Position numbers and translations under genes: made by a program. Below are positions 8,801 through 41,999 of a stretch of DNA of 64,000 nt, one piece after another; position 1 is the first letter of the stretch, and every line of letters starts with the position of its first letter. This DNA is from Botryllus schlosseri. Taxonomy: Eukaryota. The notes under the pieces were generated by a model. It did no database searches. It worked only from the letters and a program-made list of their open reading frames with translations, and was not told the origin of the DNA. Where the stretch lies: the NCBI GenBank assembly GCA_051294905.1, contig CM119372.1, positions 34,846,001 to 34,910,000 on the forward strand. Reading direction: 5' to 3'.

Positions 8801-10141
8801 AAAAAAAGATGTGTAGGGATATGAATACAACCAAGCTTGTTATGGATTTTAGGTTTTAGTGATTGTATGGATTCGTGTATGTTTGGCTGTTTTTCATACT
8901 GATACTGTTTGAGTTGGTTGGGTAAGTTACAAACGGATTTACTTGACAATATTTTCGTGGTTGACTCTTTGAATATGGTAAGATGGTGAGATGTCGAGAC
9001 GTAATACTATTTCCGTACACTCAATTACAACAAAACATAACCCGCATTCAAATAAGCCGTAAGCTACAAGCGGATTTAAAACTTGATGCTGTTTTGTGGT
9101 TGACTCAAGTCAGTAGTCATGTTTGTGTTGATTTCGGTAATGATCATGACGAGTTGGTCGGGTAAATTAGGTAATGTGGTAGTAACTATGACCTTACCGA
9201 GTTGCTGACATTCAAATATCTTTTACGGATTTAATTGTGATAAATTATTTCTCAGTTATTGTTCAGACATTCAAATCTCGTATACTCAAAATATAATATG
9301 TTCAAGTCAAATCGTATATGCACCGATTAGTAAATACTTTGTCTTCAGAATAGTAACGACCTTTACAATCGAATAAAAAAAAAGACCGATCATACGAGTA
9401 CAACCAGGATGAATTAATTCAAGTTTGCGAGTCGTAGTGATATAGCCAAGTAAGTGAAAACTAGATTTTAAACACTTGTTAATGTTGTGAATAATTCTTT
9501 TGAGTATGGTAAGATGTTAAAATGTCTCTTTGACAAACGGAAAGCTGGATCGGGAATAGAGTTGTAATGTTTCATTACTTGTTTCAAATCAATGTGTGTA
9601 TAATATCGAAACGGGACTGTGGGGAAGTTGCTAGTCATGTTTGTCAATCCTATTTCAATTCGCACTACGCCTAAGTCGAAATAATCGGTTTCGGATTACG
9701 ATTTTACAATTATTTCACACCTTTTTGAATAAGCGTCAACTTCACAGAGGATTAGGGTTGGGTCAGAAATAAGTGAAAATTTGTCGGTATTCGAATCACC
9801 GGCTACGCCGGCTCTGTGGTAAACTAATTACTAAAGTAACACCATGCGACTGATTCCTAGATTTAGCAAACTATTTCACACTGACTGGTCTAGTGTAATA
9901 ATCGATAGTAGCACACGACTGCACGGAAACAATTCAGCGCGCAGGTCATTCGAAATATAGGTCGCACGCACTGCTTAATCCTCTTGCAAGCCACGTTTCC
10001 GTTTGTGCGGTTATTGTTGGTGACTCGTACATATTCAACACCGCGCGAGAGATGCCTATACTCGAAAGTACGAATCACCGCCACGCCCATAAGAACACAT
10101 GGCGAATCACCACAGATCCCGTAAGAATACACGACAGACGA

Positions 10142-10560
10142 TTCACCGCCGCAGCCTATACCCAAAAGTACGAATCACGACCCCGAGTTTCCAATACGAG
10201 TCACCGCCACAGCCTATACCCAAAAGTACGAATCACGACCCCGAGTTTTCAATACGAGTCACCGCCACAACCTATACCCAAAAGTACGAATCACGACCAC
10301 GAGTTTTCAATACGAGTCACCGCCGCAGCCTATACCCAAAAGTACGAATCACGACCCCGAGTTTCCAATACGAGTCACCACCACAGCCTATACCCAAAAG
10401 TACGAATCACGACCCCGAGTTTTCAATACGAGTCACCGCCACAGCCTATACCCAAAAGTACGAATCACGACCACGAGTTTTCAATACGAGTCACCGCCGC
10501 AGCCTATACCCGAAAGTACGAATCACGACCGCGTCCATAAGAACCCATTACGACTCACCA
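10142..10560. repeat. 59-bp subterminal tandem repeat (~7 units) of palindromic element copy 1
   Basis: Unit TCACCGCCRCAGCCTATACCCAAAAGTACGAATCACGACCMCGAGTTTYCAATACGAG is repeated; it explains the repetitive ORFs at 10052-10578. Confidence 0.92.
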
Positions 10561-11567
10561 CCACAAGGGGGGTCTTAAAGTACGAGTCACCACCCCGGGT
10601 TTTCAATACGAGTCACCCCCCCGCCCATAAGAACCCCTGCCAGGTCGCGACCGATCTACTATACTACTTACGACGCCTAATGCATGGCTTCGTTTAATAT
10701 TCACCGAAGTTGACGTTGCCACGAAAAGCTTAAGAGTAGCTGAACTTAGCAACTGGTATCTATGTTGCTAATAACGTAAAATCCCAGTGTCAATAAAGAC
10801 ATCATATAGTGCGTGTGCGTGCAAACAGTAACGTTCCCTGGCTGCTTTATAAAACCATAAGTTATGTGGTTGGGGACTCGTGACAAGTTGGCAAAGAGAT
10901 ATTGTATTTGTGAGTTACTAATGTGTAATGAGTTGTTGTTCCACAAATGCTATTTTATTGTGGGGTGTGGCAGTTACGAACCTGTCGTAAACCATCAGGC
11001 AGGGGCATGCAGTTTGCGATGCAACAGCACAACCTACATTCCTAGCGAAATGAGTGAATATTCACAACCAAAGGGTGGTACATGAAAACACAACCGAACT
11101 AAGAATTATATCGTGGTTGTAAACCCTACCTGCCTATACGTCCATACCATCCTTAGTCCGTACATACAAGCATCATTGGGATAAAAATGTTGTATTTGGT
11201 TTATACCGTGGTGTATAAGGTATAGGTTCAGATATCGTACACCACAAGTATATTTTCACACCCTTATATCACCCGTGGTAGACGGGTGTGAATGTGAATA
11301 CACACCGTTTTCGCTAAGAGTGTACATCAAGATTACGACGACTATAATTGCAACGTATGATACTCTCGAGGGATGATGTGTGTGAGTAATGAGTATCTAT
11401 GAGAAGGCTACGGTGACATTGCTATCTCTAGTGCTAATACTTAGAAGAGACATGGTACCATATTTATGTGTGGTGTACCTTGGTAACGCCTTTAACGCCA
11501 GACGTTGGTAAATTTGGTTTTCGGCTTTGTGGTGTTAAATATTTTCCATGTGGGGTTGCGGAACTCG

Positions 11568-14655: not shown

Positions 14656-16522
14656 TTACGTAGTTTTTTGATGGTGGCTCAACAAGAGATGGTTGAATCG
14701 CTTAAGTTCATTCTTCGCAAAGCAATTGAAAGCTGTCTGGGCGATGGAGTTGAAGTTTGCATGACCAGATTGACAGCAGTTATTCAAAAGAGGGCGCATT
14801 AGGCTTGACAAATGAACCACCTCGTAAGTTGCCTCCGTGAAAACAAATCTTTGGTTTTGACAACAAAACAATTTTTGCTTCATGTCCATGGAATCACTTA
14901 TGATGGTGAAATATTTGACAGCAAGCGTCGTTATTGCAAAGCATAACTCGGTAGGCTCAGCAAGTCCACCTCGATCAGCCATTTTGAATATTCTTTTGTA
15001 TTCTTCTGGGAAGTAGAAATCCAAATCCGGAACGTCACGGTCGGTTATCAGCAATGTTTTGCAATCCATGCACTTTCGTCGCACAGAAATTGATCGGCCA
15101 ATGCATCCACTGACAAAATATATCACACCGGCCTCTTCAGTTGTGATAAAATTCAGCGGTGCAGAGATAGGCAAAAGAAAGCTCACCAACCATTTGAAAT
15201 CTTCTGCAGGTTGTAACACAGTTGCGGTCAAAGGTGGGTCTTGTTCATTCAAATTAAGAATACTCTTCAAACCATGCTGCTGAAGAAAGCTCAAGCAGCG
15301 GAACTTTTTTTCCGCAGGCAGTAACTGCTTCACGGACATGAAAAAGTTTGCCCCATTAACTTGCCGGTACATGTCAAATCTAGCCTCAATCGGATCTGAC
15401 AAGACTTTTCCGGTGAGAAAATACTTCACGCCATGTTGCCGTTGAAGGTATCTTGACAGTGAAAGGACTGAGGTCATGGTTCGAATACAAGCCATAAAGG
15501 TCTCGTTAGTGAGTCCAGCTCTGTCAGATCTTTGCCACTCCATGAATATAGTTATGGCTTTGTTCAGGGATATCTAGACTAGGGATTGATAACTCTTTTT
15601 TGCCCATTACGTGATGGTTTGCCTTCCCCAGTCAGACCCGCGAATGAGCCATGGGTGTACTCAATTCTTTGTGCTGTATACACCTCATCTATCATGAGGC
15701 ATACGATACGATCGCGGGGTGTTAAGTCTTTTGATCGCTCTTTTAAATAATGCAAGTCTACTTTTCTTGGCTCCACAGTCATTTTCGATGATATTTGGCG
15801 AAGTCGACTCATCGAAGGCAAGGCAAAGAAATGCTTCAACTTTTTGTACAGGACTAGTCAATCTCGACAGGAAAGCCAACATAAGAGTATCAGGTGAATA
15901 TCGGCGACCTTTTGGGTGGATTTGAATCAATTTCAACTGTTTCACAAGAAATCCTAACAAAGGTGTCATGCAGCCATCCTGTAGAGCTGTGGACTCTGCC
16001 GTAGCGACGAGATAATCTTCCGGGATAGACACAGCAAGACTAATGCTGCTCGAGTCATCACTGCCACTATACAGTTTCCTGCATACAGCAAGCACATTGG
16101 CTACCTGGCTGGTGCTTTGTACAAATCCGGTTGGAAGCACGTTCTCATACATCGATCTGGGAACTGGTTTGGAATTAACAAAAGCAAAGACTTCCAAATT
16201 CTGCTTTATGAGAAGGGATATGGCAAGTTTCGGTGGATTGATCATATTTTCTGATGTCTCTATCCAGTGAAATTGCAGCGAATCATCGGTCATCGGTGCA
16301 CACAGAACTATATCCAGATGGTAGTGTCTCGTTCTTAATCTTCTCCTTCCGAGAAGCTAATGTTTCAATATTTTCAAGCAGAAAAATTTGCTTGTTACGG
16401 CCCTCAATTACAGAATTTTGCATTTCACGTCTTGCAGAAGCACTTGTTGATTTCGTACTCCGAGATGTAGGGCTCGGTACACTCAAATACCCCGACAGAT
16501 TTGGGAAAATATGAGGAACAAC
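14656..16522 (-). pseudogene. P-element/THAP9-like transposase, central and C-terminal parts (frameshifted, internally deleted)
   Basis: Motifs KGRRYSP, LPSMSRLR, CLMIDEVY (first catalytic Asp region), LTNETF, YFLTGKVLSDPIEARF (catalytic Glu region) and YFVSGCIGR..CMDC, spread over four ORFs. Confidence 0.85.
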
Positions 16523-17429
16523 AGTAGTAGTATAGATCGCTCGCGATTCGTAATGGGCTCTTATGGGCGCGGCGGTGAGGTGCCTGAAAACTCGTGGTGG
16601 TGATGGCACCCTTTTACACCCCCTCTCGGCGGTGAGGTGCCATGTGTTCTTATGGATGCGGTGATGATGGCACCCTTTCGGGTATAGGCTGCGGTGGTGA
16701 GGTGCCGCGAAAACTCGTGGTGGTGATGGCACCCTTTTACAACCCCTCTCGGCGGTGAGGTACCTATGTGGTGATGATGGTACCCTTTCTGGTATAGGCT
16801 GCGGCGATGATGTGCCTACGGATTCTTGTGTCGTAGTGAACTAACGTTGTGGATATAGGCTGCGGTGATGATGTGCCCACGGATTCTTGTGTCGTAGTGA
16901 ACTAACGTTGTGGATATAGGCCGCGGCGATGATGTGGCTGTCGTGTATTATTACACGGTTTCTACTGATTCGCCATGTGTTCTTATGGGTGCGGTCGTGA
17001 TGCGCACTTTCAACCATCTCTCGCGCGGTGTTGAATATGTACGAGTCACCAACAATAACCGCACAAACGGAAACGTGGCTTGTTGTGAGGATTAAGCAGC
17101 GCGACCTATATTTCGAATGACCTGCGCGCTGAATTATTTCCCGCCAACCGCGTGCTACTATCGATTATTGCACTAGACCAGTCAGTGTGAAATAGTTTGA
17201 TCGTAAATTATGATATATGATGTCGTAGTTTAGTCGTGTCAAATGACCGATCGTGTTCTCTTTCCTCGCTATTGATTGCTAGCTGAATAATACTTTCGGC
17301 TTATTCGCTGTTTCGCGCCTACAGAATAGTCTGCTGTTCACAGTCGCAACAAGAATCACAAGTATACACATTTACACATTCGTTTATTACTCTGAAATCA
17401 AACTCTTCACAAAAACACGTACAATCGTA

Positions 17430-17879
17430 TCATTCACTTTTTTTATCATCGCCAAAATTATCCAAGTATTCCTCGGTTGAAAACCCTTGAGCTCTTTTTA
17501 TCAAGAATGCGATAGCATGATCTCCACACACATCTGAAGTTTTACTCTGTAACTGTTTCCCAGTCACTGAAAATTCATCCGGCTCCAGGAATTCGATTAT
17601 CTGAGGTTTTAGTGGTCCGAAGCCTAGCGAATCATGAAAATGAGTATCGTCATCTCTGTATATAGACACCCAGTGAGATCCAGGCAAACTCGATTCGTCG
17701 TAATTAATGGTGATAGCGAATTTTCCGCTAGTTGGTTTCTTCGGTAACTGATCTACTGGATAAGTTCGGCGATTCGAATATCGACAATAACCGCGTTCGC
17801 ATACTAACACTCTAAAAAGGTGTGAAATATTTGTAAAAATCCTACGACCACTCACAAGATAACACATCAGAATAGTCAT
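17430..17879 (-). CDS. Adenain-like (Polinton/Maverick-type) cysteine protease, probably degraded at both ends
   Basis: YPVDQLP...INYDESSLPGSHWVSIY...FHDSLG...QLQSKTSDVCGDH gives the H/D/Q/C catalytic pattern. A 1-nt shift in an A-run hides the expected C-terminus (NDTIVRVFVKSLISE). Confidence 0.85.
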   Translation of the reverse strand: MTILMCYLVSGRRIFTNISHLFRVLVCERGYCRYSNRRTYPVDQLPKKPTSGKFAITINYDESSLPGSHWVSIYRDDDTHFHDSLGFGPLKPQIIEFLEPDEFSVTGKQLQSKTSDVCGDHAIAFLIKRAQGFSTEEYLDNFGDDKKSE

Positions 17880-18833
17880 CTCTCGTGGTTTGGTGTTACA
17901 AAGGTAGGAATTATAAGTAATATTTTGGACGACAATGACATATCGTTATTCTTATGGACGCGGCGACATGATAACGTTACAGGTATAGGTTGTGGTGGTG
18001 ATTCGCCATGTGTTCTTATGCGTGCGCTCGCACGTCGTACTTTCAAGTATAGGTATCTCTCGCATGTCGTATTGGAAACTCGTGTTGGCTCGCTCACGCG
18101 GCGAAATTTTAGTAATCAGTTTGTCACAGTACTTGATATCGCTGGTAAGATTTAACAAGTAACGAATAACAGACCGCGGTAACTTGAATAGCGACAAATT
18201 GTCACTTATTTCCGCTCTAACTCTAATCCTTTGTGAAGTGAACGCTTATTCAAAAGGGCGTGATATAATTTTAAAATCCAACGACCACTCACCGGATAAT
18301 GCTTCAGACATATAGCAATCCCTCATACCCGCCTACAAGGTAATATTTCGGTAATTAGTTTGTCACAGAACCGTCGCAGGCGGTGATTGGAAAACCGACA
18401 ATTTGTCACTCGCCCGCGATCGCTATATGTTTCACGCCTCCAGAATAGTGGCTGACTTTAGTTGCGTGATAAGATCCATGAAAATATTCAATCAATGTGT
18501 TAGTTTATCAACTTGAAATGAAACTCACTACACAAATCAAGTCGATTCGTATCTGAATGTTTTAAATCGGTACAACTCTAATCCTTTGACAAAGCCCTTA
18601 ACGCGTTTTTGGTGAATCGAACGTAACCCGAATATTACTGACGCCGACTTTCAGCCGCATCGAATTATTCGCACATTCCGCGTCACTGTTTTCGCACTTA
18701 TAGAATCAATACCAACTATAACTCTTCAAGAATCAAGAATCACAAGTATGTGCATTACACAGTTATTGTCTTTATTAACTTGAAATCAAACACTTAACAA
18801 AAACACACAACTAATCATTTGGCAACTCTAGCA

Positions 18834-19109
18834 TTACCAAAAAATTCCAGTATTGTTGATTGAAAATCCTTGAGTCATTATTATCAAAAATGTTATAGTA
18901 CCGCATCGGGATCCATTCGCGGGATGTACTAAAGGTAAATCCAAATAATCCACATTCGCGGGATGTACTAAAGGTAAATCCAAATAATCCACATTCGTGG
19001 GATGTACTAAAGGTAAATCCAAATAATCCAGAATGAAATATTTGGACTTTGACATAGTGTGAATTGAAATAGGATTGACAAACACGACTACCAACTTTGA
19101 TCCAGCCAC
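18834..19109 (-). pseudogene. Diverged paralogue of the adenain-like protease (catalytic His absent, internal 39-bp triplication)
   Basis: AGSKLVVVFVN..YFILDYLDLPLVHP aligns with PGSHWVSIYRD..HFHDSLGFGPLKP, and RCGTITFLIIMTQGFS aligns with VCGDHAIAFLIKRAQGFS. The downstream nucleotides are also similar. Confidence 0.6.
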
Positions 19110-21849
19110 ATTTCAAGATCATACTTTGAAACAAGTAATGTAACATTACAACTCTATTCACGATCCCGCTTTCCATTTGTCAAAGAAATATTTTAACATC
19201 TTACCATACTCAAAAGAATTATTCACAACATTAACAATTGTTAAAAATCTAGTTTTCACTTACTTGATTATATCACTGCAACTCATAAATTTGAATTAAT
19301 TCATCCTGGTTGTATTCGTATGCTCGGTCTTTTTTATTCAATTGTAAAGGTTGTTACTATTCTGAAGACAAAGTATTTACTAATCGGTGCATATACGATT
19401 TGACTTGGACATATTATATTTTGAGTATACGAGATTTGAATGTCTGAACAATAACTGAGAAATAATTTATCACAATTAAATCCGTAATATTACAGCGTAA
19501 AAGATATTGGAATGTCAGCAACTCTGCAAGGTCATAGTTACTACCACTAATTTACCCGACCAACTCGTCATGATCATTCCTGAAATCAACACAAACGTGA
19601 CCACTGACTTGAGTTAACCACAAAACAGCATCAAGTTTTAAATCCACTTGTAGCTTACGGCTTATTTGAATGCGGGTTATGTTTTGTTGTAATTGAGTGT
19701 ACGGAAATAGTATTACGTCTCGACATATCACCATGTCGGAATTTGTGGCAGAGAATTGAAACATATGCACTTTACAGAGTGTGAAAATATCTCTTTGAGT
19801 ATCGAGTACCGTTCGAAGCAAGCGATCAATTCTTAATCATTTCAGTAACTCCCCATTGTGTGTGCTAAATGTAAAATATCGCGAGGTTATACACTCTAAG
19901 ACTTTGATTATTACAAAAGTAAATTGTGATATGTTTGTTAGATGCATCCAATTCAACTAGAAGTGTCTAGTGCCCAACACTCGTAATATCAAAAAAGTAC
20001 TCGCTACACTGTTATTTGCTAAACGTGTTTTGCATTGTTGTTCATTTGTAGTATTGAATGAAATTGTTCTTGAACCCTCAAATAATAATTCCCGACATGA
20101 AACCAAGCCGCTGAAAGTCGTTACCATCACGAAGATACAATGTGTACGATGTTTGTCAAATGTGTCCTACCTGGCCAACAGAAAACAATTTTCACTAGCT
20201 TGGTAATGAAACCGAAGTCTCCATTCGATATATTGTTTGCGTCAAATACTTTACAACGAACACATTTGCGTGGTTGAGCTTTACATCATCAGACTGTCAT
20301 CTGTACATCAAGAATACATCAGACTTGTAACTGGATCGTTTACCTAACCGAGTTGATATTTTTGTCATTTAGTGATTGCTGAACATACCACTTCGAAATA
20401 CTGCGTTGATCTTAATTTCCATCATCGTGATAAGTGAAGTACATTTGTTTTGAATTCATAACAATAGGCTTTTCTACGACATGATAAATTATTGACAAGT
20501 TCTGCTTAGAAGATTGGTTGCATATCACGAAAAATAATATACCACACATATTATTACTGTTACTCCATTCATCGGTATTTTTTCCGTTGTCGATTTTCAA
20601 ACGAGTAAAATTTATTACTTGAGTTGCTCTGCTTAATGTAAATGTAAACTCGCCCATCTTTCAACAACAAACAATGTTAAAATAGTATACAATCAAACAC
20701 AACAAGTTTTACGATACTAATTATTATCCCACATAACCCATTTCTTACTGAAGACATATGAAATATATTCATGTTACACGAAAATATTCGCTCATGCTAC
20801 AAACCTGTACAATGATTGGTGGTGCTTTCAAACTGTTTCGATACCTCAAGAACTTTATTGTCTGAACGGTTGTTCATGTATCGTAATAATCAAGTAGTTA
20901 AACATAGAACTAGTATTAACAGAAACACCAGAGTTGTTTACACAAAAGTTTGTATGTGTACAGTATACGAATACCATTTGTAAGTCCAGCACAATTGTGG
21001 TATCCATACGAGTTTAGTTAACACAATTTACGACACCGAGGTCGCGTCATCTTTCGTAAGACAACAAACCAAGGCTTCAGGATATGTCCATGTCATAGCA
21101 ATAAATCAGCTACTCCAACAACAGAGTGCATATGTTTCTAGTTACGGCGCTTACATCTTACACACAAATCAATCTACTTTGCTAACGAAAAGTGGTGAGT
21201 CATCATATGGTTGTCCTCACAACTAAAACATACTATCACACAAAATGGTCGTTATAGTTTGCACACCAACGGTACATCGTACAAGTAACAAGTCTCGAGA
21301 ATCCAGTTATTCAAAAAACGTGAAAGTATTTCTACACCAAGTCGTTATGTTGACGAAAGCGTATATTGTAAGATCATGATCGATTTACATTCGTTGGTCA
21401 CAAAATGTCACTACTCTAAATAATTATTTTTCACTCAAACACAAACGCATACTTGTCACCATTCGTTTTCATCAAGCACGAGTTCAAGAAACTTACTTAC
21501 TACGATATGAATTTTTATTTTTATGTTGTGTAAATAGGTAATAATTAATTCAAGTAACACTATATCAACATCATCGAGTTGTGCTAATAGATTTACATGT
21601 GGTCTTGTGGTTTTCGTCGGGACATACAGCACGAACTAACTGTAGACTCCTCTCTGTTGTACAGCTACTCGGTAATCGAAATGCATTAACATGTAAACAA
21701 CGATCTTGTTTCGTCACACCAAAAATATGTTCACTGTCGCGATACTCCGCACAAGACGTGCATAGCCTTTTCACACTCGTAATAGTATACCAACGTCAAG
21801 CGATAACGTTTACCAACACCAACGACACTAAACCCACGACGTTTACCTA

Positions 21850-22600
21850 TGTAAAATTACCACTTTCACTTGTCAGTCCATCGTTTACCTGACTAAACAT
21901 ATTATTTTCCTTTGGAGATCTGACGTTTACCCAGAGTAAGAAACCATTTTCACTTGTAAATATTTTTTTTTCCTCGGCTAACAAACCTTTTTTCACTTGT
22001 AAATATATTTTTTTCCTCGGCTAACAAACCTTTTTTCACTTGTAAATATTTTTTTTCTCTGGTTAACAAACCTTTTTCACTTGGAAATATATTTTTTCTC
22101 TTGGTAATAAACCTTTTTCACATGGAAATATATTTTTTCTCTTGGTAATAAACCTTTTTCACATGGAAATATATTTTTTCTCTGAGTAACAAACCTTTTT
22201 CACATGGAAATATATTTTTTCTCTGAGTAACAAACCTTTTTCACTTGGAAATATATTTTTTCTCTGGGTAACAAACCTTTTTCCCTTGGAAACATATTTT
22301 TTCCCCGGGTAACAAACCTTTTTCCCTGAGCAACAAACCTTTTTCACTTACAAATATATTTTTTCCTGGGTAACAAACCTTTTTCACTTGGAAATATATT
22401 TTTTTCCCTGGGTAACAAACCTTTTTCGCTTGGAAATATATTTTTCCCTGGGTTACAAACCTTTTTCACTTGGTGATCCGTCGTTTACCTGAGTAAAAAT
22501 ATCATTTTCCTTTGGGGATCTGGCGTTTACCCAGTGTAACAATACATTTTCTCTTGGTCATCTAGCTTTTCCTAGAGTAACAAAACCATTTTCATTTTGA
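21850..22600. repeat. ~41-bp tandem array, left arm of copy 2
   Basis: Units are directly visible; one unit more than the right arm. Confidence 0.9.
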
Positions 22601-24894
22601 AATCTGACAACCACACCGACAATTTGATATTTTTGTATTTTCTTACAGCGAACAGCGACAAAATATACACCAACAACGACTCCGATACATTTGTCTAATC
22701 AAATATTCACTTGTGTTGGTGCATCCCATCAAAATCATCGGTTACCCACATGCAATGCGCTCTTGTACACAGAAATGCATGTTTTGGAAACTTGGACAAT
22801 AGGCTTCGATAGTTCTGTGCTGTCTGGGTTCGTGCTTTGGATTTTCCAGAGTCAAAATGTCTGAATAAAACACCTCCTCGACGATGGTTGGTATGTGGAT
22901 AACGGTGTTCGGAAAACGGTTGGATTTATGTCACCCATCGCGATAACAATTCCAGGTCAAGTTTTCCCCTCGCATGTTTACTATATTGTGTCTTTATTGG
23001 TCAATGTATGCCTCGACATTCAGTTTGAAATCGGAAACCCTGATAAAGTATGCAACCGGATCCGGATATCAACTCTGAATCGATAAACCAATGAACAATA
23101 TTCAAAGTAAACATGTTACACCCTGTGTTTCCACGAAAAAATACCATCCAGACATACGTCGCGCTTGTTTGCCCACACCAGTATACGCGTAAATGGAGGT
23201 GTGTGACATTGCATGCAATGTGTTGGTATACAAACATCGATCCACAGACAATATCATAGCCGGTAGTTTTGATGTAGATCGAATGTCATCACACCCGATA
23301 ACAATACCAATAAGCCACATTGTAATGACTCTGAGTCCGCGGTATTAGTCATGACCCTATCTCCGGACAGACGTCCCAGATCAATTGGAGACATCGATCA
23401 ATATCCGTCGCGTTGTCGACACCGAACTTTTCTGCTGCAGCGTTTGACCAATGTGAACTATCGAAGTATGGGTGCTCGAAATGATTGCGATCAGTCTTTC
23501 AGTCACGATGCATCGATGTCGCTACTCCCACATAACGACTCCAGATAAATATCGTGAACAGTGATTCTGCAAATCTCGGACTGATACTGTGATCCAATAT
23601 TGTGTGTTTCTGTGGAATCAAGACTGTAATCGTACACCACAATGGAAATCATAAAACACATCATCGTAAGGATCCAGTTCGTCCTGTGACATTTCGAAAC
23701 GGTCATCGCCACAATAGATCGGTATCATTTTGAAACGACATCGTCACAAGTCTATTGACGTCGATTCTGTTGGTCATGTCAATCCATTTCACAATCCACC
23801 GTTTTTCAAGTCCCTGCACCATAGTGTTACGACACAGACAAGAAGCGACGGTGGAAATAATAAAACACGAAAAGCACACTTTGGTGTTATTTGACATGGA
23901 TTTTACACGAGATGAACCTCACATTCGAGCGATGAATTGGAATGGTGATTGTATTGTTGACGTCAAAGGAAAAGAAATGTATCGATTTATCGGTTTCGTA
24001 CATATCCAACAAAAATCTGGGTATATGATTGTGCATGGTTCGCATATTCGACTGTGAACGCCCAATTGGTATATGTTGTACAGTTCACTTTCACCGTCGT
24101 GCGAATAACCCATGTTAGGGTTCCATGTTTGTGTGTCTGTATGTCATGCTTCAGATTGACTCAGAGTCATTACAATGTGGCTTATTGGTATTGTTATCGG
24201 GTGTGATGACATTCGATCTACATCAAAACTACCGGCTATGATATTGTCTGTGGATCGATGTTTGTATACCAACACATTGCATGCAATGTCACACACCTCC
24301 ATTTACGCGTATACTGGTGTGGGCAAACAAGCGCGACGTATGTCTGGATGGTATTTTTTCGTGGAAACACAGGGTGTAACATGTTTACTTTGAATATTGT
24401 TCATTGGTTTATCGATTCAGAGTTGATATCCGGATCCGGTTGCATACTTTATCAGGGTTTCCGATTTCAAACTGAATGTCGAGGCATACATTGACCAATA
24501 AAGACACAATATAGTAAACATGCGAGGGGAAAACTTGACCTGGAATTGTTATCGCGATGGGTGACATAAATCCAACCGTTTTCCGAACACCGTTATCCAC
24601 ATACCAACCATCGTCGAGGAGGTGTTTTATTCAGACATTTTGACTCTGGAAAATCCAAAGCACGAACCCAGACAGCACAGAACTATCAAAGCCTATTGTC
24701 CAAGTTTCCAAAACATGCATTTCTGTGTACAAGAGCGCATTGCATGTGGGTAACCGATGATTTTGATGGGATGCACCAACACAAGTGAATATTTGATTAG
24801 ACAAATGTATCGGAGTCGTTGTTGGTGTATATTTTGTCGCTGTTCGCTGTAAGAAAATACAAAAATATCAAATTGTCGGTGTGGTTGTCAGATT

Positions 24895-25600
24895 TCAAAA
24901 TGAAAATGGTTTTGTTACTCTAGGAAAAGCTAGATGACCAAGAGAAAATGTATTGTTACACTGGGTAAACGCCAGATCCCCAAAGGAAAATGATATTTTT
25001 ACTCAGGTAAACGACGGATCACCAAGTGAAAAAGGTTTGTAACCCAGGAAAAAATATATTTCCAAGCGAAAAAGGTTTGTTACCCAGGGAAAAAAATATA
25101 TTTCCAAGTGAAAAAGGTTTGTTACCCAGGAAAAAATATATTTGTAAGTGAAAAAGGTTTGTTGCTCAGGGAAAAAGGTTTGTTACCCGGGGAAAAATAT
25201 GTTTCCAAGGGAAAAAGGTTTGTTACCCAGAGAAAAAATATATTTCCAAGTGAAAAAGGTTTGTTACTCAGAGAAAAAATATATTTCCATGTGAAAAAGG
25301 TTTGTTACTCAGAGAAAAAATATATTTCCATGTGAAAAAGGTTTATTACCAAGAGAAAAAATATATTTCCAAGTGAAAAAGGTTTGTTAACCAGAGAAAA
25401 AAAAATATTTACAAGTGAAAAAAGGTTTGTTAGCCGAGGAAAAAAATATATTTACAAGTGAAAAAAGGTTTGTTAGCCGAGGAAAAAAAAAATATTTACA
25501 AGTGAAAATGGTTTCTTACTCTGGGTAAACGTCAGATCTCCAAAGGAAAATAATATGTTTAGTCAGGTAAACGATGGACTGACAAGTGAAAGTGGTAATT
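24895..25600. repeat. ~41-bp tandem array, right arm of copy 2
   Basis: Reverse complement of 21850-22600. Confidence 0.9.
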
Positions 25601-28345
25601 TTACATAGGTAAACGTCGTGGGTTTAGTGTCGTTGGTGTTGGTAAACGTTATCGCTTGACGTTGGTATACTATTACGAGTGTGAAAAGGCTATGCACGTC
25701 TTGTGCGGAGTATCGCGACAGTGAACATATTTTTGGTGTGACGAAACAAGATCGTTGTTTACATGTTAATGCATTTCGATTACCGAGTAGCTGTACAACA
25801 GAGAGGAGTCTACAGTTAGTTCGTGCTGTATGTCCCGACGAAAACCACAAGACCACATGTAAATCTATTAGCACAACTCGATGATGTTGATATAGTGTTA
25901 CTTGAATTAATTATTACCTATTTACACAACATAAAAATAAAAATTCATATCGTAGTAAGTAAGTTTCTTGAACTCGTGCTTGATGAAAACGAATGGTGAC
26001 AAGTATGCGTTTGTGTTTGAGTGAAAAATAATTATTTAGAGTAGTGACATTTTGTGACCAACGAATGTAAATCGATCATGATCTTACAATATACGCTTTC
26101 GTCAACATAACGACTTGGTGTAGAAATACTTTCACGTTTTTTGAATAACTGGATTCTCGAGACTTGTTACTTGTACGATGTACCGTTGGTGTGCAAACTA
26201 TAACGACCATTTTGTGTGATAGTATGTTTTAGTTGTGAGGACAACCATATGATGACTCACCACTTTTCGTTAGCAAAGTAGATTGATTTGTGTGTAAGAT
26301 GTAAGCGCCGTAACTAGAAACATATGCACTCTGTTGTTGGAGTAGCTGATTTATTGCTATGACATGGACATATCCTGAAGCCTTGGTTTGTTGTCTTACG
26401 AAAGATGACGCGACCTCGGTGTCGTAAATTGTGTTAACTAAACTCGTTTGGATACCACAATTGTGCTGGACTTACAAATGGTATTCGTATACTGTACACA
26501 TACAGACTTTTGTGTAAACAACTCTGGTGTTTCTGTTAATACTAGTTCTATGTTTAACTACTTGATTATTACGATACATGAACAACCGTTCAGACAATAA
26601 AGTTCTTGAGGTATCGAAACAGTTTGAAAGCACCACCAATCATTGTACAGGTTTGTAGCATGAGCGAATATTTTCGTGTAACATGAATATATTTCATATG
26701 TCTTCAGTAAGAAATGGGTTATGTGGGATAATAATTAGTATCGTAAAACTTGTTGTGTTTGATTGTATACTATTTTAACATTGTTTGTTGTTGAAAGATG
26801 GGCGAGTTTACATTTACATTAAGCAGAGCAACTCAAGTAATAAATTTTACTCGTTTGAAAATCGACAACGGAAAAAATACCGATGAATGGAGTAACAGTA
26901 ATAATATGTGTGGTATATTATTTTTCGTGATATGCAACCAATCTTCTAAGCAGAACTTGTCAATAATTTATCATGTCGTAGAAAAGCCTATTGTTATGAA
27001 TTCAAAACAAATGTACTTCACTTATCACGATGATGGAAATTAAGATCAACGCAGTATTTCGAAGTGGTATGTTCAGCAATCACTAAATGACAAAAATATC
27101 AACTCGGTTAGGTAAACGATCCAGTTACAAGTCTGATGTATTCTTGATGTACAGATGACAGTCTGATGATGTAAAGCTCAACCACGCAAATGTGTTCGTT
27201 GTAAAGTATTTGACGCAAACAATATATCGAATGGAGACTTCGGTTTCATTACCAAGCTAGTGAAAATTGTTTTCTGTTGGCCAGGTAGGACACATTTGAC
27301 AAACATCGTACACATTGTATCTTCGTGATGGTAACGACTTTCAGCGGCTTGGTTTCATGTCGGGAATTATTATTTGAGGGTTCAAGAACAATTTCATTCA
27401 ATACTACAAATGAACAACAATGCAAAACACGTTTAGCAAATAACAGTGTAGCGAGTACTTTTTTGATATTACGAGTGTTGGGCACTAGACACTTCTAGTT
27501 GAATTGGATGCATCTAACAAACATATCACAATTTACTTTTGTAATAATCAAAGTCTTAGAGTGTATAACCTCGCGATATTTTACATTTAGCACACACAAT
27601 GGGGAGTTACTGAAATGATTAAGAATTGATCGCTTGCTTCGAACGGTACTCGATACTCAAAGTGATATTTTCACACTCTGTAAAGTGCATATGTTTCAAT
27701 TCTCTGCCACAAATTCCGACATGGTGATATGTCGAGACGTAATACTATTTCCGTACACTCAATTACAACAAAACATAACCCGCATTCAAATAAGCCGTAA
27801 GCTACAAGTGGATTTAAAACTTGATGCTGTTTTGTGGTTAACTCAAGTCAGTGGTCACGTTTGTGTTGATTTCAGGAATGATCATGACGAGTTGGTCGGG
27901 TAAATTAGTGGTAGTAACTATGACCTTGCAGAGTTGCTGACATTCCAATATCTTTTACGCTGTAATATTACGGATTTAATTGTGATAAATTATTTCTCAG
28001 TTATTGTTCAGACATTCAAATCTCGTATACTCAAAATATAATATGTCCAAGTCAAATCGTATATGCACCGATTAGTAAATACTTTGTCTTCAGAATAGTA
28101 ACAACCTTTACAATTGAATAAAAAAGACCGAGCATACGAATACAACCAGGATGAATTAATTCAAATTTATGAGTTGCAGTGATATAATCAAGTAAGTGAA
28201 AACTAGATTTTTAACAATTGTTAATGTTGTGAATAATTCTTTTGAGTATGGTAAGATGTTAAAATATTTCTTTGACAAATGGAAAGCGGGATCGTGAATA
28301 GAGTTGTAATGTTACATTACTTGTTTCAAAGTATGATCTTGAAAT

Positions 28346-28621
28346 GTGGCTGGATCAAAGTTGGTAGTCGTGTTTGTCAATCCTATTTCAATTCACACTA
28401 TGTCAAAGTCCAAATATTTCATTCTGGATTATTTGGATTTACCTTTAGTACATCCCACGAATGTGGATTATTTGGATTTACCTTTAGTACATCCCGCGAA
28501 TGTGGATTATTTGGATTTACCTTTAGTACATCCCGCGAATGGATCCCGATGCGGTACTATAACATTTTTGATAATAATGACTCAAGGATTTTCAATCAAC
28601 AATACTGGAATTTTTTGGTAA
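28346..28621 (+). pseudogene. Diverged adenain-like protease paralogue (mirror copy)
   Basis: Translation identical to 18834-19109. Confidence 0.6.
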
Positions 28622-29575
28622 TGCTAGAGTTGCCAAATGATTAGTTGTGTGTTTTTGTTAAGTGTTTGATTTCAAGTTAATAAAGACAATAACTGTGTAA
28701 TGCACATACTTGTGATTCTTGATTCTTGAAGAGTTATAGTTGGTATTGATTCTATAAGTGCGAAAACAGTGACGCGGAATGTGCGAATAATTCGATGCGG
28801 CTGAAAGTCGGCGTCAGTAATATTCGGGTTACGTTCGATTCACCAAAAACGCGTTAAGGGCTTTGTCAAAGGATTAGAGTTGTACCGATTTAAAACATTC
28901 AGATACGAATCGACTTGATTTGTGTAGTGAGTTTCATTTCAAGTTGATAAACTAACACATTGATTGAATATTTTCATGGATCTTATCACGCAACTAAAGT
29001 CAGCCACTATTCTGGAGGCGTGAAACATATAGCGATCGCGGGCGAGTGACAAATTGTCGGTTTTCCAATCACCGCCTGCGACGGTTCTGTGACAAACTAA
29101 TTACCGAAATATTACCTTGTAGGCGGGTATGAGGGATTGCTATATGTCTGAAGCATTATCCGGTGAGTGGTCGTTGGATTTTAAAATTATATCACGCCCT
29201 TTTGAATAAGCGTTCACTTCACAAAGGATTAGAGTTAGAGCGGAAATAAGTGACAATTTGTCGCTATTCAAGTTACCGCGGTCTGTTATTCGTTACTTGT
29301 TAAATCTTACCAGCGATATCAAGTACTGTGACAAACTGATTACTAAAATTTCGCCGCGTGAGCGAGCCAACACGAGTTTCCAATACGACATGCGAGAGAT
29401 ACCTATACTTGAAAGTACGACGTGCGAGCGCACGCATAAGAACACATGGCGAATCACCACCACAACCTATACCTGTAACGTTATCATGTCGCCGCGTCCA
29501 TAAGAATAACGATATATCATTGTCGTCCAAAATATTACTTATAATTCCTACCTTTGTAACACCAAACCACGAGAG

Positions 29576-30025
29576 ATGACTATTCTGATGTGTTATCTTG
29601 TGAGTGGTCGTAGGATTTTTACAAATATTTCACACCTTTTTAGAGTGTTAGTATGCGAACGCGGTTATGGTCGATATTCGAATCGCCGAACTTATCCAGT
29701 AGATCAGTTACCGAAGAAACCAACTAGCGGAAAATTCGCTATCACCATTAATTACGACGAATCGAGTTTGCCTGGATCTCACTGGGTGTCTATATACAGA
29801 GATGACGATACTCATTTTCATGATTCGCTAGGCTTCGGACCACTAAAACCTCAGATAATCGAATTCCTGGAGCCGGATGAATTTTCAGTGACTGGGAAAC
29901 AGTTACAGAGTAAAACTTCAGATGTGTGTGGAGATCATGCTATCGCATTCTTGATAAAAAGAGCTCAAGGGTTTTCAACCGAGGAATACTTGGATAATTT
30001 TGGCGATGATAAAAAAAGTGAATGA
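29576..30025 (+). CDS. Adenain-like (Polinton/Maverick-type) cysteine protease (mirror copy)
   Basis: One amino-acid difference from 17430-17879; same H/D/Q/C motifs. Confidence 0.85.
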   Translation: MTILMCYLVSGRRIFTNISHLFRVLVCERGYGRYSNRRTYPVDQLPKKPTSGKFAITINYDESSLPGSHWVSIYRDDDTHFHDSLGFGPLKPQIIEFLEPDEFSVTGKQLQSKTSDVCGDHAIAFLIKRAQGFSTEEYLDNFGDDKKSE

Positions 30026-30933
30026 TACGATTGTACGTGTTTTTGTGAAGAGTTTGATTTCAGAGTAATAAACGAATGTGTAAATGTGTATACTTGTGAT
30101 TCTTGTTGCGACTGTGAACAGCAGACTATTCTGTAGGCGCGAAACAGCGAATAAGCCGAAAGTATTATTCAGCTAGCAATCAATAGCGAGGAAAGAGAAC
30201 ACGATCGGTCATTTGACACGACTAAACTACGACATCATATATCATAATTTACGATCAAACTATTTCACACTGACTGGTCTAGTGCAATAATCGATAGTAG
30301 CACGCGGTTGGCCGGGAAATAATTCAGCGCGCAGGTCATTCGAAATATAGGTCGCGCTGCTTAATCCTCACAACAAGCCACGTTTCCGTTTGTGCGGTTA
30401 TTGTTGGTGACTCGTACATATTCAACACCGCGCGAGAGATGGTTGAAAGTGCGCATCACGACCGCACCCATAAGAACACATGGCGAATCAGTAGAAACCG
30501 TGTAATAATACACGACAGCCACATCATCGCCGCGGCCTATATCCACAACGTTAGTTCACTACGACACAAGAATCCGTGGGCACATCATCACCGCAGCCTA
30601 TATCCACAACGTTAGTTCACTACGACACAAGAATCCGTAGGCACATCATCGCCGCAGCCTATACCAGAAAGGGTACCATCATCACCACATAGGTACCTCA
30701 CCGCCGAGAGGGGTTGTAAAAGGGTGCCATCACCACCACGAGTTTTCGCGGCACCTCACCACCGCAGCCTATACCCGAAAGGGTGCCATCATCACCGCAT
30801 CCATAAGAACACATGGCACCTCACCGCCGAGAGGGGGTGTAAAAGGGTGCCATCACCACCACGAGTTTTCAGGCACCTCACCGCCGCGCCCATAAGAGCC
30901 CATTACGAATCGCGAGCGATCTATACTACTACT

Positions 30934-31239
30934 AACAACACCCGGTTTCAAACGTGATCTTGATAATTTCTGAAATTTGTGCTTGTTTCGGCGGGTGATG
31001 TTTGTATCACAGGTGTCTACCATGAAGTCATCAGGAGAGAAATGCTTCGCACACACCCTGGTGTATATTGTTACTATCCAATTTTTGCGTGGAATCGCTC
31101 TAATCCATTTCTGCCGTAAATGTTGCTCTTGTGAAAAAAAAGACGTCCGTTCATGTAAAACTGAGCATTCCTCTACTGTAGAACTTTTTCTGGGATTGTA
31201 TCCAGAACGGCAATTTGGCACACAGCAGGTATATCCCAT
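30934..31239 (-). pseudogene. N-terminal THAP zinc-finger domain of the P-like transposase
   Basis: MGYTCCVPNC...KWIRAIPR..W...VCAKHF...RLKPGVV. It joins PHIFPN at 16516 once the insertion and one TSD copy are removed, restoring the AVPTIF-like box. Confidence 0.9.
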
Positions 31240-32099
31240 TCGTCAATCGTAGTGTCAGCGTCAAATAAATTCAAGTCTAATATAATTAGTTCCAGCAATT
31301 AATGGTGATAAAATGAAAATTAGATGATATAGGCGTGTAAGCATATGAGCCTGTAAGCCTATAGACCTGTATTATGCCTATTGCCTATAGGCATGTAAGC
31401 CTACATGCTTGCAAGCCTACAGGCCGGTAAGCCTATAGGGCCAAAGCCTTGCACGCTGCCCAAAGCCTTGCACGCTGCTCAGTCGCCCACTCGCCCAGCC
31501 TATAGGTCTGTCTGTCCGTCTATATACTGTGTAGCAATAGTGGCTATACGTCTAGACAAAAAAAACACGAGTACAAATCCGCCAGTCACTACCACTACTA
31601 CTGATGTACTGAACGACTCGACTAGTTCTTACCGGTACTTCTCGCGCGTGACAAACCTAACGAGCTGAGTAGCCAATACTGGTACCGCTCCAACGTTTAA
31701 ACTATTAAAACTTATCCTCAGTTCACTTCAGTAAGATCTACGGTCAGACCATCCCGTGCATCAATAGTAACGACGCAGTTAGCGATGAACGCAAACCCTC
31801 AATTACAATTAGAATTTGTACCGGCACTGCTCAAACGCGATCGTCATCGACCTTTCGCACGAGATTTATGAAACAGTTTGCCAGCTAACTTACGATGTAC
31901 GATCGTCCCTAACCTATCTAGTAGATGCCTGGCGAACAGTATATATCCCTGAATTGACAAATAACAACGCACACAATTTTAACTGCGAGCGCAACGATAT
32001 TCCTTCACCTCAACTGCTGTTTGACAAGAATGCCCTCATTCCGTCATTGAGTACGCGGTCACGTGACTAGTTATCAATCCCGTAGTCTAGATATCCCTG

Positions 32100-34707: not shown

Positions 34708-37700
34708 AGTATTATAGTAGATCGGTCTGGGGGTGGCAGAGGCTCTTATGGGTGCGGTCGCACGGTGCCGAGAAACTCGTAGTGGCACGGTGACCCTTAT
34801 CTCTTATGGGTGCGGTCGCACGGTGCCATTGTGTCTTATGGCGGGGGTGGCACGGTTACCTTTTCGGGTATAGGCTGCGGCGGCACGGTGCCGCGAAAAC
34901 TCATGGTGGCATGGTTACCTTTTCGGGTATACGCGCAGTGGCACGGTGACCCTTCGGGTATGTCCTGTTGATGATTTGACTAACGTTGCGGGTATAGGCG
35001 CGGCGGCACGGTGTTGAATAAGTATCAAGTAAATAGTCACGTGATTGGTTCTTAGTTATTGTGTATATCACAAATTAATATATATGACCAATTTGAAGTA
35101 ATCCCAACGTTTACGGTGAGTGCGACAGTGATATATCGTTATTCTTATGGCGGGGGTCGCAAGCGGCTCTTGTGTCTTATGGCGGGGGTGGCAAGCGGCT
35201 ATTGTGTCTTGTGGTCGCACGGTAACCCTTTTCAGCATAGGGATCGGTCGCACGCGGCTTCGTTGTTGGCATGTCGTACTTTCGGGAATAGACTGCAGGC
35301 GGCATGTCGTACTTTTAGCAAAAAAGGGTGTGAAATAGTTTGCTAAATCTAGGAATCACTTGCTTGGTAATATTTTGGTAATTAGTTTGCCACAGAGCCG
35401 GCGTAGACGGCGATTCAAATACCAACAATAGCCGCGTTCACATACTAACACTTCAAAAAGGTGTGAAATATTTGTAAAATCCTACGATCGCCCACAAGAT
35501 AACACCTCAGACATAGTCATCTTTCACGACTTGGTCTAATAGCCATACCGATCGCTCACGCGGTGAAATTTTAGTAATCTGTTTGTCACAGAACTTGATT
35601 TCGCTGGTAAGATTTAATAGGTAACGACTAACAGAACCGCCAGTGTCGGTAACTTGAATACCAACAAATTGCCACTTATTTCCATCCTAACCCTAATCCT
35701 TTGTGAGGTTACCGCATACTCAAATAGGTGGGGAATAATTGTAAAATCCCACGATCGCTCACAAGGGTAAGGAATAACCGAACCACAACGGCGGCGACTT
35801 GAATACTATCAAATTGTCAATTGTTGGTATAACTCGAATCTTGACTTGACCAACTTTCAACTGCGTTTCCGGATCATTCACACATTCCACGCCGCTGTTT
35901 TAACACTTATAGAATCAATACCAACTATCTCTAACCCGATAATATTCAATCATTTTAGTAATTTACCTACTTTAAATCCGTTCGCCAGATGTACTACAGG
36001 TAAACTGAGATAATCCTTGAAACTGACAACTCTATTCACGACTCCGTTTCCGTTTGTAAAATAGAGTTTCAGAAATACTATCACTATGACAACTCAACAT
36101 TTTAACATCTTGCCATGCACAAAAGAGTAAAATACAAAAACCTTGGTAAGTCAATCCGTTTGTAGTAACTCACCAAACCAAAACAAAAAGTGTCCGTATG
36201 AAAAGTAGACAAGACTACGCGAGTAATCACTACAGCCCACAAACATACCAACTCAGTTGTATCCATATCCCGTCTTTTTATTCAACTGTAAGATGAAGTA
36301 ATTACTACTTGGCGCGCGACTTGAGATTAACATGTGTTTTGAATATAAGACATTCGAAAGTCTGGCCAACGTAATTAAGAATTCATTTCTTGCGATCAAA
36401 CGCCGGTGTTACATTGAAAGTTATCATACTGCAAACATAAGGATTGACACAGTGATTTGACATATGACGTATATTTTGTAATGTTCGACCATGACTTGGT
36501 TATTAAATTATTCACGGTAATTAGACTCGGTGTTTTGGTAAAGGTTATTATGACAGCAACAAACTTTTCATTATCATGGTTATTAAAACATCAAATTGTT
36601 AAGCCAGACTTACATGTGCGAAATATTCTTGATTCGGATATTATTCCGGATTGGTACAAAACAATCGTTGTATTGCAGACAACAGAAAATGCTTTAAAAA
36701 TGCAATCGTTTACAATAATTAGGACTAAAGATGAAACAACAATATCGGTATTATTACATTCAACAACCAGTACAATTATTAAAATCCATCGTTTGCGATA
36801 ACCGGTGCTAAAGATGTAATAATTCCATTATTCATACATTGAACACCCGATACAAAATGCTTTATTATCGCGATTCGCAACGGGTAATTGAAATGTAGAG
36901 TCAGTATATCACAATATCGTTACTATTGAATCCAACAATTGATACGATTTATTGTCGGAATTTGTGACAGCGAATTGAAACATCCATACCTTACAGAGTG
37001 TGAAAATATCACTTTAGGTATCGAGTACCAGTAGAAGTGGGTGAACAATACTTAATTCGTGACTCGTCGTTGTACTTGCTAAATGTAAAAAATTACACGG
37101 TTACACTCTAAGACCTTGATCAGCACAAGAGCAATTTGGAATATCATTACTGGCTGCAACCTATTCTACTAGACAAAACCCACAGCGATAATAAAATCAA
37201 AATATGTGCTACACTGAAATCTACAAAATTAGGGATCATACATTATCATATGAATATTCTAAAGTAATTATAATCATAAAACCAAACCGCTGAAAGTCAT
37301 TACCACCCCCACAAAACAATTTGTATTATATTCACCAAACGCATCACAACTCAGTATACAGAAATTATTTGTAGAGTGCATACCGACAAAGAAATCATGA
37401 ACACAACCAACACCGAAAATGATAAACACGTTTCGCGTTACTATTGAGACAAGTTCATTTCTATCGGGCGAAATAAATGCCACCAAAAAACTCACAGCAT
37501 GCAAAGGTCTTGATTGATATGCATTTCAATTTGTGTCTCATGATACCAGCAGGCATTTTAGACATATTACGAATTGTTAAACCAAAGTCGTACGTCCGAT
37601 TAATAGTTGATTGGAAACTTGTTCACGTACCTCAACCATTACAGAAAAGTATAACACCATTGCCCGACAATCTTTTACAAAAGGGATCGAAACCAAGTCA

Positions 37701-40700: not shown

Positions 40701-40888
40701 TAAACATGTTACACCCTGTGTTTCCACGAAAAAATACCATCAAGACATACGTCGCGCTTGTTTGCCCACACCAGTATACGCGTAAATGGAGGTGTGTGAC
40801 ATTGCATTCAATGTGTTGGTAAACAAACATCGGGGAGTAAACCGTCGATCCACAGACATTATCATAGCCGGTAATTTTGATGCAGATC
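34708..40888 (+). mobile_element. Palindromic-family element copy 3, solo left arm (spacer and right arm missing)
   Basis: Starts AGTATTATAGTAGATCGGTC, followed by subterminal repeats. Colinear with the arms of copies 1 and 2, including the 41-bp array. Stops 57 bp before the usual inner junction. Confidence 0.85.
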
Positions 40889-41999
40889 AAAGTAGGCTCT
40901 TTTAACAGGCACAGAAATTCAATTATCGAACACCGTTTACAAGACAATATTCTACATGGGTAGGCCTAAATGTAATTTCACGGTTATTCGCAAAATGATA
41001 AACTAAAATTGGCATAAATGGAGGGGGGGTCATAAAATCAAAGTAAGCTCTATTAGCAGGTGCAGAAATTTAATGATCGACTACTGTTTATGGTACCATA
41101 TTCTACATGGGTACATATATTTTCACGGTTACTCGTAAAATGACAACTAAAATTCGCATAAATGTAAGGGGAAGGGGGGCTCATAAAATCAAAGTAGGCT
41201 CTTTTAGCAGAAGCAGAAATTTAATGATCGACTGTTTACGGTACCATATTCTACATCGGTACATACATTTTCACGGTTATTCGCAAAATTATAACTAAAA
41301 TTCGCATAAATGTAGGGGGGGGGGGCTAATAAAATCGAAGTAAGCTCTTTAAGCGGATGCAGAAATTCAATGATCGACTACTGTTTACGGTACGATATGC
41401 TACATGGGTACATGTATTTTCACGGTTATTCGTAAAATGATAACCAAAAATCGCGTAAATGAAGAAGGAACCCCCCCCCTCATAAAATCAAAGTAAGCTT
41501 TTAGCAGGTGCAGTAATTTAATGATTGACTTCTGTGTGCGGTATTACATTCTACATGGGTACATGTATTTTCAGTTATTTGCAAAATGATAACATTTACG
41601 TATATGTAGGAGGGGGGCCCTTTAGCTAAAGGCAAAATAGATAGAGATCATCACATCAAAGTGAGCTCTTGCAACTAGCGCAGAAATTTAATGATCGACT
41701 ACTGCTTACGGTACCATATTCTAAATTGGCGCATGGATTTTTGTGGTTATTCGTAAAATGATTACTAAAAAATGAGATTTGATGATTGACCTGTCTTTAC
41801 GGTACAATACCATATTCTTTATGGATACAAGGATTCCGCGGTTATTCAGAAAATGGTAATACTTGAAAAAAAGCTCGTAAACCGGAGAAATAGTTGGAAA
41901 AAGCGCGTAAACCGAGGAGGGGGGGCCTCGAAAGCGCGTAAATCAACCAGGGGGGCCCTAGGCGACCGCCTACCTCGCCTACCGCAAAAGCGACCACTG
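40886..41999. repeat. ~150-bp tandem array (6-7 diverged units) ending in a TIR-like terminus; probably the right part of a MITE
   Basis: Recurrent ATCAAAGTARGCTCTT...AGAAATTTAATGATCGAC...TTCTACATGGGTAC; ends GGGCCCTAGGCGACCGCCTACCTCGCCTACCGCAAAAGCGACCACTG. Confidence 0.75.

Follow-up and report, generated by a model that had tools for sequence, protein, structure and literature searches.

Structure of the palindromic element

The 64,000-bp stretch of the Botryllus schlosseri genome analysed here (GenBank assembly GCA_051294905.1, 495 Mb; C2:34846001-34910000 on contig CM119372.1; hereafter the window, within which the element coordinates are given) contains a palindromic element at positions 16523–30933 (14,411 bp), and related palindromes of 13–15 kb are abundant in the same genome. 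On the reading that we favour, with some reserve, these palindromes have the same ends as an active Polinton of this genome (the helper), likely use its enzymes, and have arms that were probably re-templated by fold-back.

Self-alignment showed that two near-identical inverted arms, of 6,815 and 6,776 bp, account for 94.3% of the length of the element and enclose an 820-bp loop (Table 1), in agreement with the original prediction, which a model had made from the letters alone. The arms differ from each other by seven substitutions and five indels, one of which is a unit of a 41-bp repeat. Both ends bear an (AGT)3 motif, in keeping with the (AG)n/(AGT)n ends of Polinton terminal inverted repeats; the AGT termini, as well as subterminal repeats (of 123 and 61 bp) and a clean 6-bp duplication, had also been predicted, and all of them were found. 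The flanking hexamers have the length of the Polinton target-site duplication, and the insertion interrupts an open reading frame (ORF) with a THAP domain (Pfam THAP, E = 7.9e-13) that belongs to a repetitive transposon of the host (window positions 15685–16522 and 30934–31242). This host repeat has 20 matches in the genome, and all three uninterrupted paralogues inspected carry the hexamer singly, so the duplication is genuine.

Table 1. Features of the palindromic element, its insertion site and related elements in the window
Feature	Position	Strand	Remarks
Left target-site duplication copy, 6 bp	16517–16522	+	Single in empty paralogous sites
Left arm, 6,815 bp	16523–23337	+	Opens with (AGT)3 end motif; self-alignment
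Helper Polinton right-end segment (terminal repeat and protease piece)	16523–17767	−	Mirror ~29688–30933
Subterminal 61-bp repeat, ×2.4	16793–16936	+	Mirror 30520–30663
Subterminal 123-bp repeat, ×2.2	30639–30894		
Truncated adenain-like protease piece, left arm	17439–17765	−	109 residues
165-bp older relic of helper protease-end region	18734–18898	−	72% identical; in many copies
39-bp repeat, ×3	18914–19030	+	Mirror 28425–28541
41-bp tandem array, inner arm end	21936–22509	+	Mirror ~25021–25519; region matched in 26/26 loci compared
Unique central loop, 820 bp	23338–24157		
Loop gene, 93-aa orphan ORF	23776–24057	+	Apparent purifying selection
Right arm, 6,776 bp	24158–30933	−	Inverted copy of left arm
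Truncated protease piece, right arm	29690–30016	+	
Right target-site duplication copy, 6 bp	30934–30939	+	
5′ part of interrupted THAP-domain ORF, host transposon	30934–31242	−	Resumes below 16522
Second family member	1–10668		Starts 2,350 bp before window; arms 98–99% identical; matching 6-bp duplication
Loop ORF of second family member	3721–3999	−	Early stop
Third family member	34741–40891	+	Decayed and partial

Size and dispersal of the family

A 13-base end pattern had 1,212 forward and 1,206 reverse matches in the genome, against five and nine for the control. The first 100 ends listed gave 37 pairs, 20 of them 12.5–15 kb apart, and scaling up from 21 Mb of one contig extrapolates to about 890 end pairs genome-wide. 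Among the 36 end pairs examined, 32 were giant palindromes, three were Polintons of the ordinary kind bearing these ends and one was mismatched; the folded architecture is not, then, a peculiarity of the locus in the window. The 16 pairs from the terminus search comprised 14 palindromes and two autonomous elements, with a perfect duplication in 14 cases, a 5/6 match in one and inverted flanks in one; the 20 pairs chosen from the 37 on C1, with a preference for a spacing of 13–19 kb, comprised 18 palindromes, one autonomous element and one mismatched pair, with matching duplications in 19. Loci selected by loop similarity had inverted arms in ten cases out of ten, and the seven of them in which both ends were found show matching duplications. 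Thus, the prediction of a non-autonomous element that is mobile as an intact palindrome agrees with the presence of many dispersed copies, genome-wide, with distinct and independent 6-bp duplications.

Copies differ from one another by up to about 20%, while the arms within each copy match. The lengths of 30 hand-picked copies free of large insertions range from 12,888 to 14,741 bp (mean 13.8 kb), a narrow interval just under the length of one helper (15,791 bp), which bears out the predicted rough equality with a Polinton genome. By extrapolation, several hundred family members of 13.8 kb each would account for roughly 2% of the assembly.

An assembly or library artefact caused by fold-back chimeric reads could mimic such palindromes, and the evidence from public sequencing runs consists of short contigs only; one of these contigs, from a run that may be the source sample, spans the left junction but reaches no more than 30 letters past it to one side and was not counted as support, and summed contig depth is not usable as copy number. 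Nevertheless, matching duplications lie on flanks that are unlike at the left and the right, paralogous sites occur in the empty state, the host ORF is split, the arms carry private differences and nested one-arm insertions with their own duplications, and family sequence occurs in sequencing runs from ten studies. Taken together, these observations make an artefact extremely improbable.

Several further observations concern the family as a whole. Three nested members lie at C1:16768420-16810257 (L105–L108), the inner two with their own duplications. Positions 7–35 from the end vary strongly between copies, in recurring blocks, and are equal at both ends of almost every copy; the helpers display the same variation inside the end motif. 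A second kind of giant palindrome was found at C1:3286665-3302229 (L126, L127), sitting in the arm of a family member: it is 15.6 kb long, with arms 99.9% identical over 7.3 kb; its ends are (AGT)2, its subterminal sequence is different, and a 6-bp duplication flanks it; it has only a patch of about 600 bp in common with the main family (65–77%). The end pattern of this palindrome matched no other pair.

Resident Polintons with the same ends

The autonomous Polinton with the same ends that the original prediction had envisaged is present in the same genome. Short-repeat elements with these ends encode a polymerase, an ATPase, an integrase with a chromodomain (Pfam rve, E = 3.9e-16), capsid-region genes and a protease; polymerase and capsid were assigned from the gene order and from weak Pfam matches of their homologues in a second family (E = 2.7e-4 and 0.083). 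In searches with the helper capsid gene, 80 of 100 matches were full-length at 96% identity or more, and 77 were without stops; for the polymerase, 22 of the 26 full-length matches, at 67–69% identity to the second family, were free of stops. The helper family is thus recently amplified, and the ends of the palindromes are common to a coding-intact element of the same genome, as expected of a satellite.

The second autonomous Polinton family (L101–L104; 11 full-length capsid matches) has a capsid protein 80% and a polymerase 68–69% identical to those of the first. It has its own, different ends and shows no match to the interior of the palindrome arms.

Composition of the arms

In the window element, the match to the right end of the helper is confined to the outermost 1,245 bp of the arm, to the 165-bp relic and to one ~100-bp patch; the outer segment shows 88% identity over 1,086 bp to L018 and 95% over 793 bp to L110. 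Across the palindrome copies, helper matches are limited to the outer 0.3–1.6 kb of the arms, and the first 200–340 bp match the helper terminal repeat at about 91%. Apart from patches of ~70–165 bp, the helper matched neither the remaining ~5.5 kb of each 6.8-kb arm nor any of the loop, and the arm interior has neither a DNA nor a protein match to either resident Polinton family. The arms are mosaics of common modules, with ~75–98% identity between copies. Tblastn searches with the ORFs of both resident families found no protein-primed polymerase (pPolB), integrase, ATPase or capsid gene in the window element, just as none had been recognised in the original prediction, and no gene resembling a single-strand-binding protein was found in its arms.

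The sole counterpart of the Polinton ATPase, major and minor capsid and protease genes is a protease piece of 109 residues, all of which are identical to residues 24–132 of the 148-aa helper protein; the first 23 and last 16 helper residues are missing in frame. The helper protease is adenain-like by its fold (model pLDDT 84.5; Foldseek match to adenovirus protease, E = 3.7e-5, TMq 0.74), and a profile search matched ASFV pS273R (E = 1.1e-4). The adenain-like protease predicted for each arm is, therefore, real as to its fold and its presence in both arms, but it is truncated, and most copies of the family lack it. It is best described as a recent, incidental capture, optional for the family. 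The right (protease) end of the helper was captured in the window element and in L001, L003, L024 and L041, and its left end (1.1 kb at 94%) in L091 and L099; an ORF of this left end, the OB-fold Pfam match of which has an E-value of only 0.13, occurs in two of the 54 sequences searched. These distributions indicate that family members captured helper ends more than once.

The original prediction had explained the palindrome as a copy-back defective Polinton genome. The shape suits the definition of snap-back genomes (PMC13506859), the arm begins with 1.2 kb of the helper right end, and the protease piece is 100% identical to the helper protein, all of which would suit a recent copy-back of the helper in the strict sense. 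However, some 80% of the arm, and the loop too, have no helper homology, the protease piece is missing from most copies, and loop genes of two types are only about 60% identical. Since Polinton-derived sequence is limited to the outer ~1.2 kb in each arm, the window element is not a folded helper genome; we reject a recent copy-back origin from the helper, which is very improbable in view of these data. An ancient copy-back from an extinct element is conceivable.

The lack of helper matches in most of the arm, together with long, internally repetitive inverted arms similar to those of foldback elements (PMC3573991), also brings to mind a cut-and-paste transposon of the Galileo/FB type, which would be moved by another transposase and would have acquired Polinton-like ends by capture or chance. 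Against such a transposon stand the ~91% match of the first 200–340 bp to the helper terminal repeat, the 6-bp duplication, which is that of the helper, the repeated capture of helper ends and the lack of a transposase among the ORFs of at least 85 aa in the 19 copies searched. We regard this explanation as highly improbable.

The loop gene

The loop contains an ORF that was overlooked in the original prediction; it encodes 93 aa in the window element and 91–93 aa across the family. Of 25 copies, 20 contain it, in one of two types that are about 60% identical; from the 1,187 candidates of a genome-wide search, 150 were scored, and every one of these matched. The ratio of non-synonymous to synonymous substitution rates (dN/dS), calculated from 31 distinct intact ORFs with broken copies excluded, was 0.42 and 0.25 within the types and 0.28 between them by the NG86 method, and 0.44, 0.25 and 0.39, respectively, by LWL85; these values are descriptive, because the sequence pairs are not independent. 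The indel frequency in 26 copies is 0.3/kb inside the ORF, compared with 9.1/kb upstream of it and 2.1/kb downstream, and all five alternative frames contain stops. Together, the sequence comparisons indicate that the gene is under purifying selection.

Among the ORFs of at least 40 aa in 25 copies, that of the loop alone is both widespread and clearly selected; other arm ORFs include one of 50 aa (15 copies, dN 0.074, dS 0.109) and one of 70 aa (six copies, dN 0.015, dS 0.074). An Rfam search gave two sub-threshold matches within the 41-bp array.

Searches identified neither relatives nor a fold for the loop protein. Its best Pfam match had an E-value of 0.088; a word-indexed search restricted to proteins of 51–163 aa gave one match (83% identical), and one match was found among 1.84 billion representatives; there was no usable match in the Atlas and none among viral contigs. 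The AlphaFold model is all-beta with a low pLDDT (48), and no fold match was obtained at E = 0.001. The listed public runs containing family sequence included no RNA data.

At least three loop types exist in the family. The third, found in L009 and L065, is 330–340 bp long (91% alike in the two copies) and does not contain the 91–93-aa gene; both copies look intact.

Symmetry of the arms and its maintenance

The closest sister of the window copy (L041/42, C1:33049833) has arms that are 100% identical, with no one-arm differences against seven in the window copy. Beyond position 1,000, the two copies differ by 11 substitutions, each present in both arms; the first 500 bp of the sister also differ from the window copy in both arms, and the loops differ at two of 820 sites. 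With a third copy as the outgroup, the one-arm changes of the window copy are private, and at positions 560–5400 this copy has five private one-arm changes versus two private symmetric ones. In a set of 28 copies, none of the 127 isolated arm-to-arm substitutions was common to any two copies; had the arms been inherited separately, sisters would be expected to share such asymmetries. After insertion the arms drift, as one-arm insertions persist in several copies and the arm identity of old copies is as low as 95–98%. Module swaps of 0.7–1.1 kb occur in both arms. Because arms drift after insertion and asymmetries are unshared among copies, we consider it rather probable that symmetry is reset at mobilisation, with some later conversion.

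The arms of sex-chromosome palindromes are kept alike by gene conversion. By analogy, the elements may be helper-dependent and Polinton-ended while their arms stay alike mainly because gene conversion or fold-back repair acts on them in the chromosome, and not at mobilisation. The symmetric differences between sisters fit this explanation as well, and chromosomal conversion probably contributes to the likeness of the arms. As the principal cause we find it unlikely, though it is the alternative to be taken most seriously: one-arm insertions remain unconverted, old copies have drifted to 95–98% arm identity, the private changes of the window copy at positions 560–5400 are more often one-armed than symmetric, and whole modules are exchanged in both arms.

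A number of points weigh against re-templating at mobilisation, some of them in favour of chromosomal conversion. Arm-to-arm differences amount to 2.0/kb in the innermost kilobase, 1.5/kb at the tips and 0.59/kb in mid-arm (two of 30 copies were left out, owing to alignment overshoot and heterologous tips), i.e., they are 2.3- to 3.4-fold denser beside the loop and 2.6-fold denser at the tips (the excess has a Poisson p of ~1e-4 in the inner 700 bp as well as at the tips); the low mid-arm density fits chromosomal conversion, since conversion would clean the middle of the arm. A template switch at some distance from the loop is likewise compatible with the inner excess. In two copies the host flanks are inverted (685 bp at 98.6% and ~3.1 kb at 99.8%), the result either of arm-templated chromosomal repair or of an error in the assembly; such flanks, too, fit chromosomal conversion. 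The asymmetry test covers 28 of several hundred copies, with few close sisters, and the narrow size range is that of a hand-picked set. The loop gene appears to be dispensable in cis, because two intact-looking copies carry a gene-less loop, and the RNA reads over the loop are few (46, 26 and 18) and derive from both strands. Lastly, the element and its family are known here from assembled DNA, and not as a free molecule, a particle or a transposition caught in the act.

The members with inverted flanks in place of a direct duplication lie at C12:6426251-6453537 and C1:16765283-16813392. In L132/L133, as well as in L075 and L079, the duplication matches, yet the outermost tips differ between the arms, by up to ~570 bp; the unlike tips suggest that molecules recombined or that another copy later served as a donor for conversion.

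Proposed mechanism and significance

Shared ends and captured helper segments make mobilisation by helper proteins likely. Under re-templating at mobilisation, the helper integrase would release and insert the element through its ends, and the helper protein-primed polymerase would start at one end and displace a single strand, which may snap back into a hairpin of ~6.5 kb. Adenovirus panhandle replication and end repair offer a precedent for such folding, and Kapitonov and Jurka reportedly proposed a racket model of Polinton replication; both served as analogies here. One arm could then be copied from, or corrected against, the other, by a template switch onto the nascent strand, by 3′ trimming and refilling, or by mismatch repair, and, as a consequence, arm and loop would evolve as a single unit. 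Template switching among co-replicating molecules, to which the captures point, may generate mosaic arms and swap modules and ends, and the size of the element may be kept near that of the helper, possibly by packaging. Tentatively, and only by analogy with phage-satellite proteins, the loop protein might favour its own element in helper replication or packaging. After insertion, the arms would diverge, with some local conversion.

The recent protease capture, confined to a minority of copies, the element's own selected gene and the existence of at least three loop types argue for an old, independently evolving satellite. A bolder interpretation, which is possible but which we hold to be doubtful, is that these palindromes are true satellite replicons of animal polintoviruses, with hairpin genomes templated by a single arm, kept at ~14 kb by packaging in the capsid of the helper, encoding an orphan protein that biases the helper machinery, having arisen more than once, as the second, 15.6-kb palindrome on C1 with its different ends would illustrate, and having been missed by surveys, as surveys begin from polymerase and integrase genes. 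If true, this interpretation would provide the first genomic handle on whether Polintons of animals form particles and whether they go through a folded-back single strand.

More generally, the arms record every copying event, and the size just under helper length, with no genes that explain it, makes questions of replication and particles testable in natural DNA; the selected orphan gene of the loop is a candidate satellite factor. Long inverted repeats of this kind are usually regarded as unstable. An animal genome evidently tolerates several hundred of them, each of 14 kb.

Other features of the window

A 151-bp tandem array (×4.7) at positions 40886–41593 directly follows the third, decayed family member. 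The region 54197–61462 contains a reverse-transcriptase ORF (Pfam RVT_1, E = 4.4e-9), a perfect inverted repeat of 1,503 bp and a direct repeat of 487 bp; we take it to be a Penelope-type retroelement.

Comparison with known systems

The palindromes resemble autonomous Polintons/Mavericks in their (AGT)n ends, 6-bp duplication and overall size, and they have the terminal repeat and end segments in common with the resident helper. The vertebrate elements surveyed by Barreat and Katzourakis in 2021 are 12.7–24.6 kb long, with terminal repeats of 46–1,447 bp and a median of eight copies, and a size constraint was argued for intact Mavericks (PMC8097293). The palindrome arms, at 6–7 kb, are far outside this range of terminal repeats, those of the window element (6.8 kb) being more than four times as long as the longest one reported there, and the several hundred copies of the family contrast with the median of eight. 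Unlike Polintons, the palindromes have no polymerase, integrase, ATPase or capsid gene and carry a single orphan gene in the loop. The survey began from integrase and polymerase matches (PMC8097293) and could not, therefore, find such palindromes. Polinton replication and the formation of particles in animals are still deduced largely from gene content (PMC5499653).

Repbase includes Polintons that are non-autonomous by name, such as Polinton-1N1_DR (PMC9341505) and Polinton-N1A_NV, which has a capsid gene (PMC11296320). The likeness to the palindromes lies in the label, the comparison being one by name only. In the literature searched, to which the founding paper (Kapitonov and Jurka, 2006), the Repbase entries and supplementary files did not belong, no description of giant palindromic Polinton derivatives was found; the term "undescribed" is provisional, because these named entries exist and their structures lie outside the comparison. 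Some zebrafish non-autonomous Polinton entries may have very long inverted repeats, in which case the architecture would already be catalogued.

Foldback transposons (Drosophila FB, Galileo) and miniature inverted-repeat transposable elements (MITEs) are similar in their long, internally repetitive inverted arms and in non-autonomous copies outnumbering the helper, but the palindromes differ in their Polinton-type ends and duplication length and in a size that stays at ~14 kb instead of shrinking. FB and Galileo duplications are 7–9 bp long, as opposed to 6 bp in the window element. Transpovirons and other virus satellites likewise are linear DNA with terminal inverted repeats and parasitise a virus, but transpovirons are ~7 kb long and non-palindromic, encode a helicase and ride giant viruses (PMC5499653).

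Snap-back/copy-back defective viral genomes share with the palindromes the near-complete palindromic form, ends that can both be used as origins and the dependence on a helper, which is likely for the palindromes (PMC13506859). The palindromes, unlike these genomes, are integrated, inherited and long-lived, have their own apparently selected gene and are mostly not helper-derived; the window element is not built of parent-genome sequence, as a strict copy-back would be. In its workings the element resembles a non-autonomous Polinton and in its shape a snap-back defective genome, and it belongs strictly to neither the autonomous Polintons nor the copy-backs.

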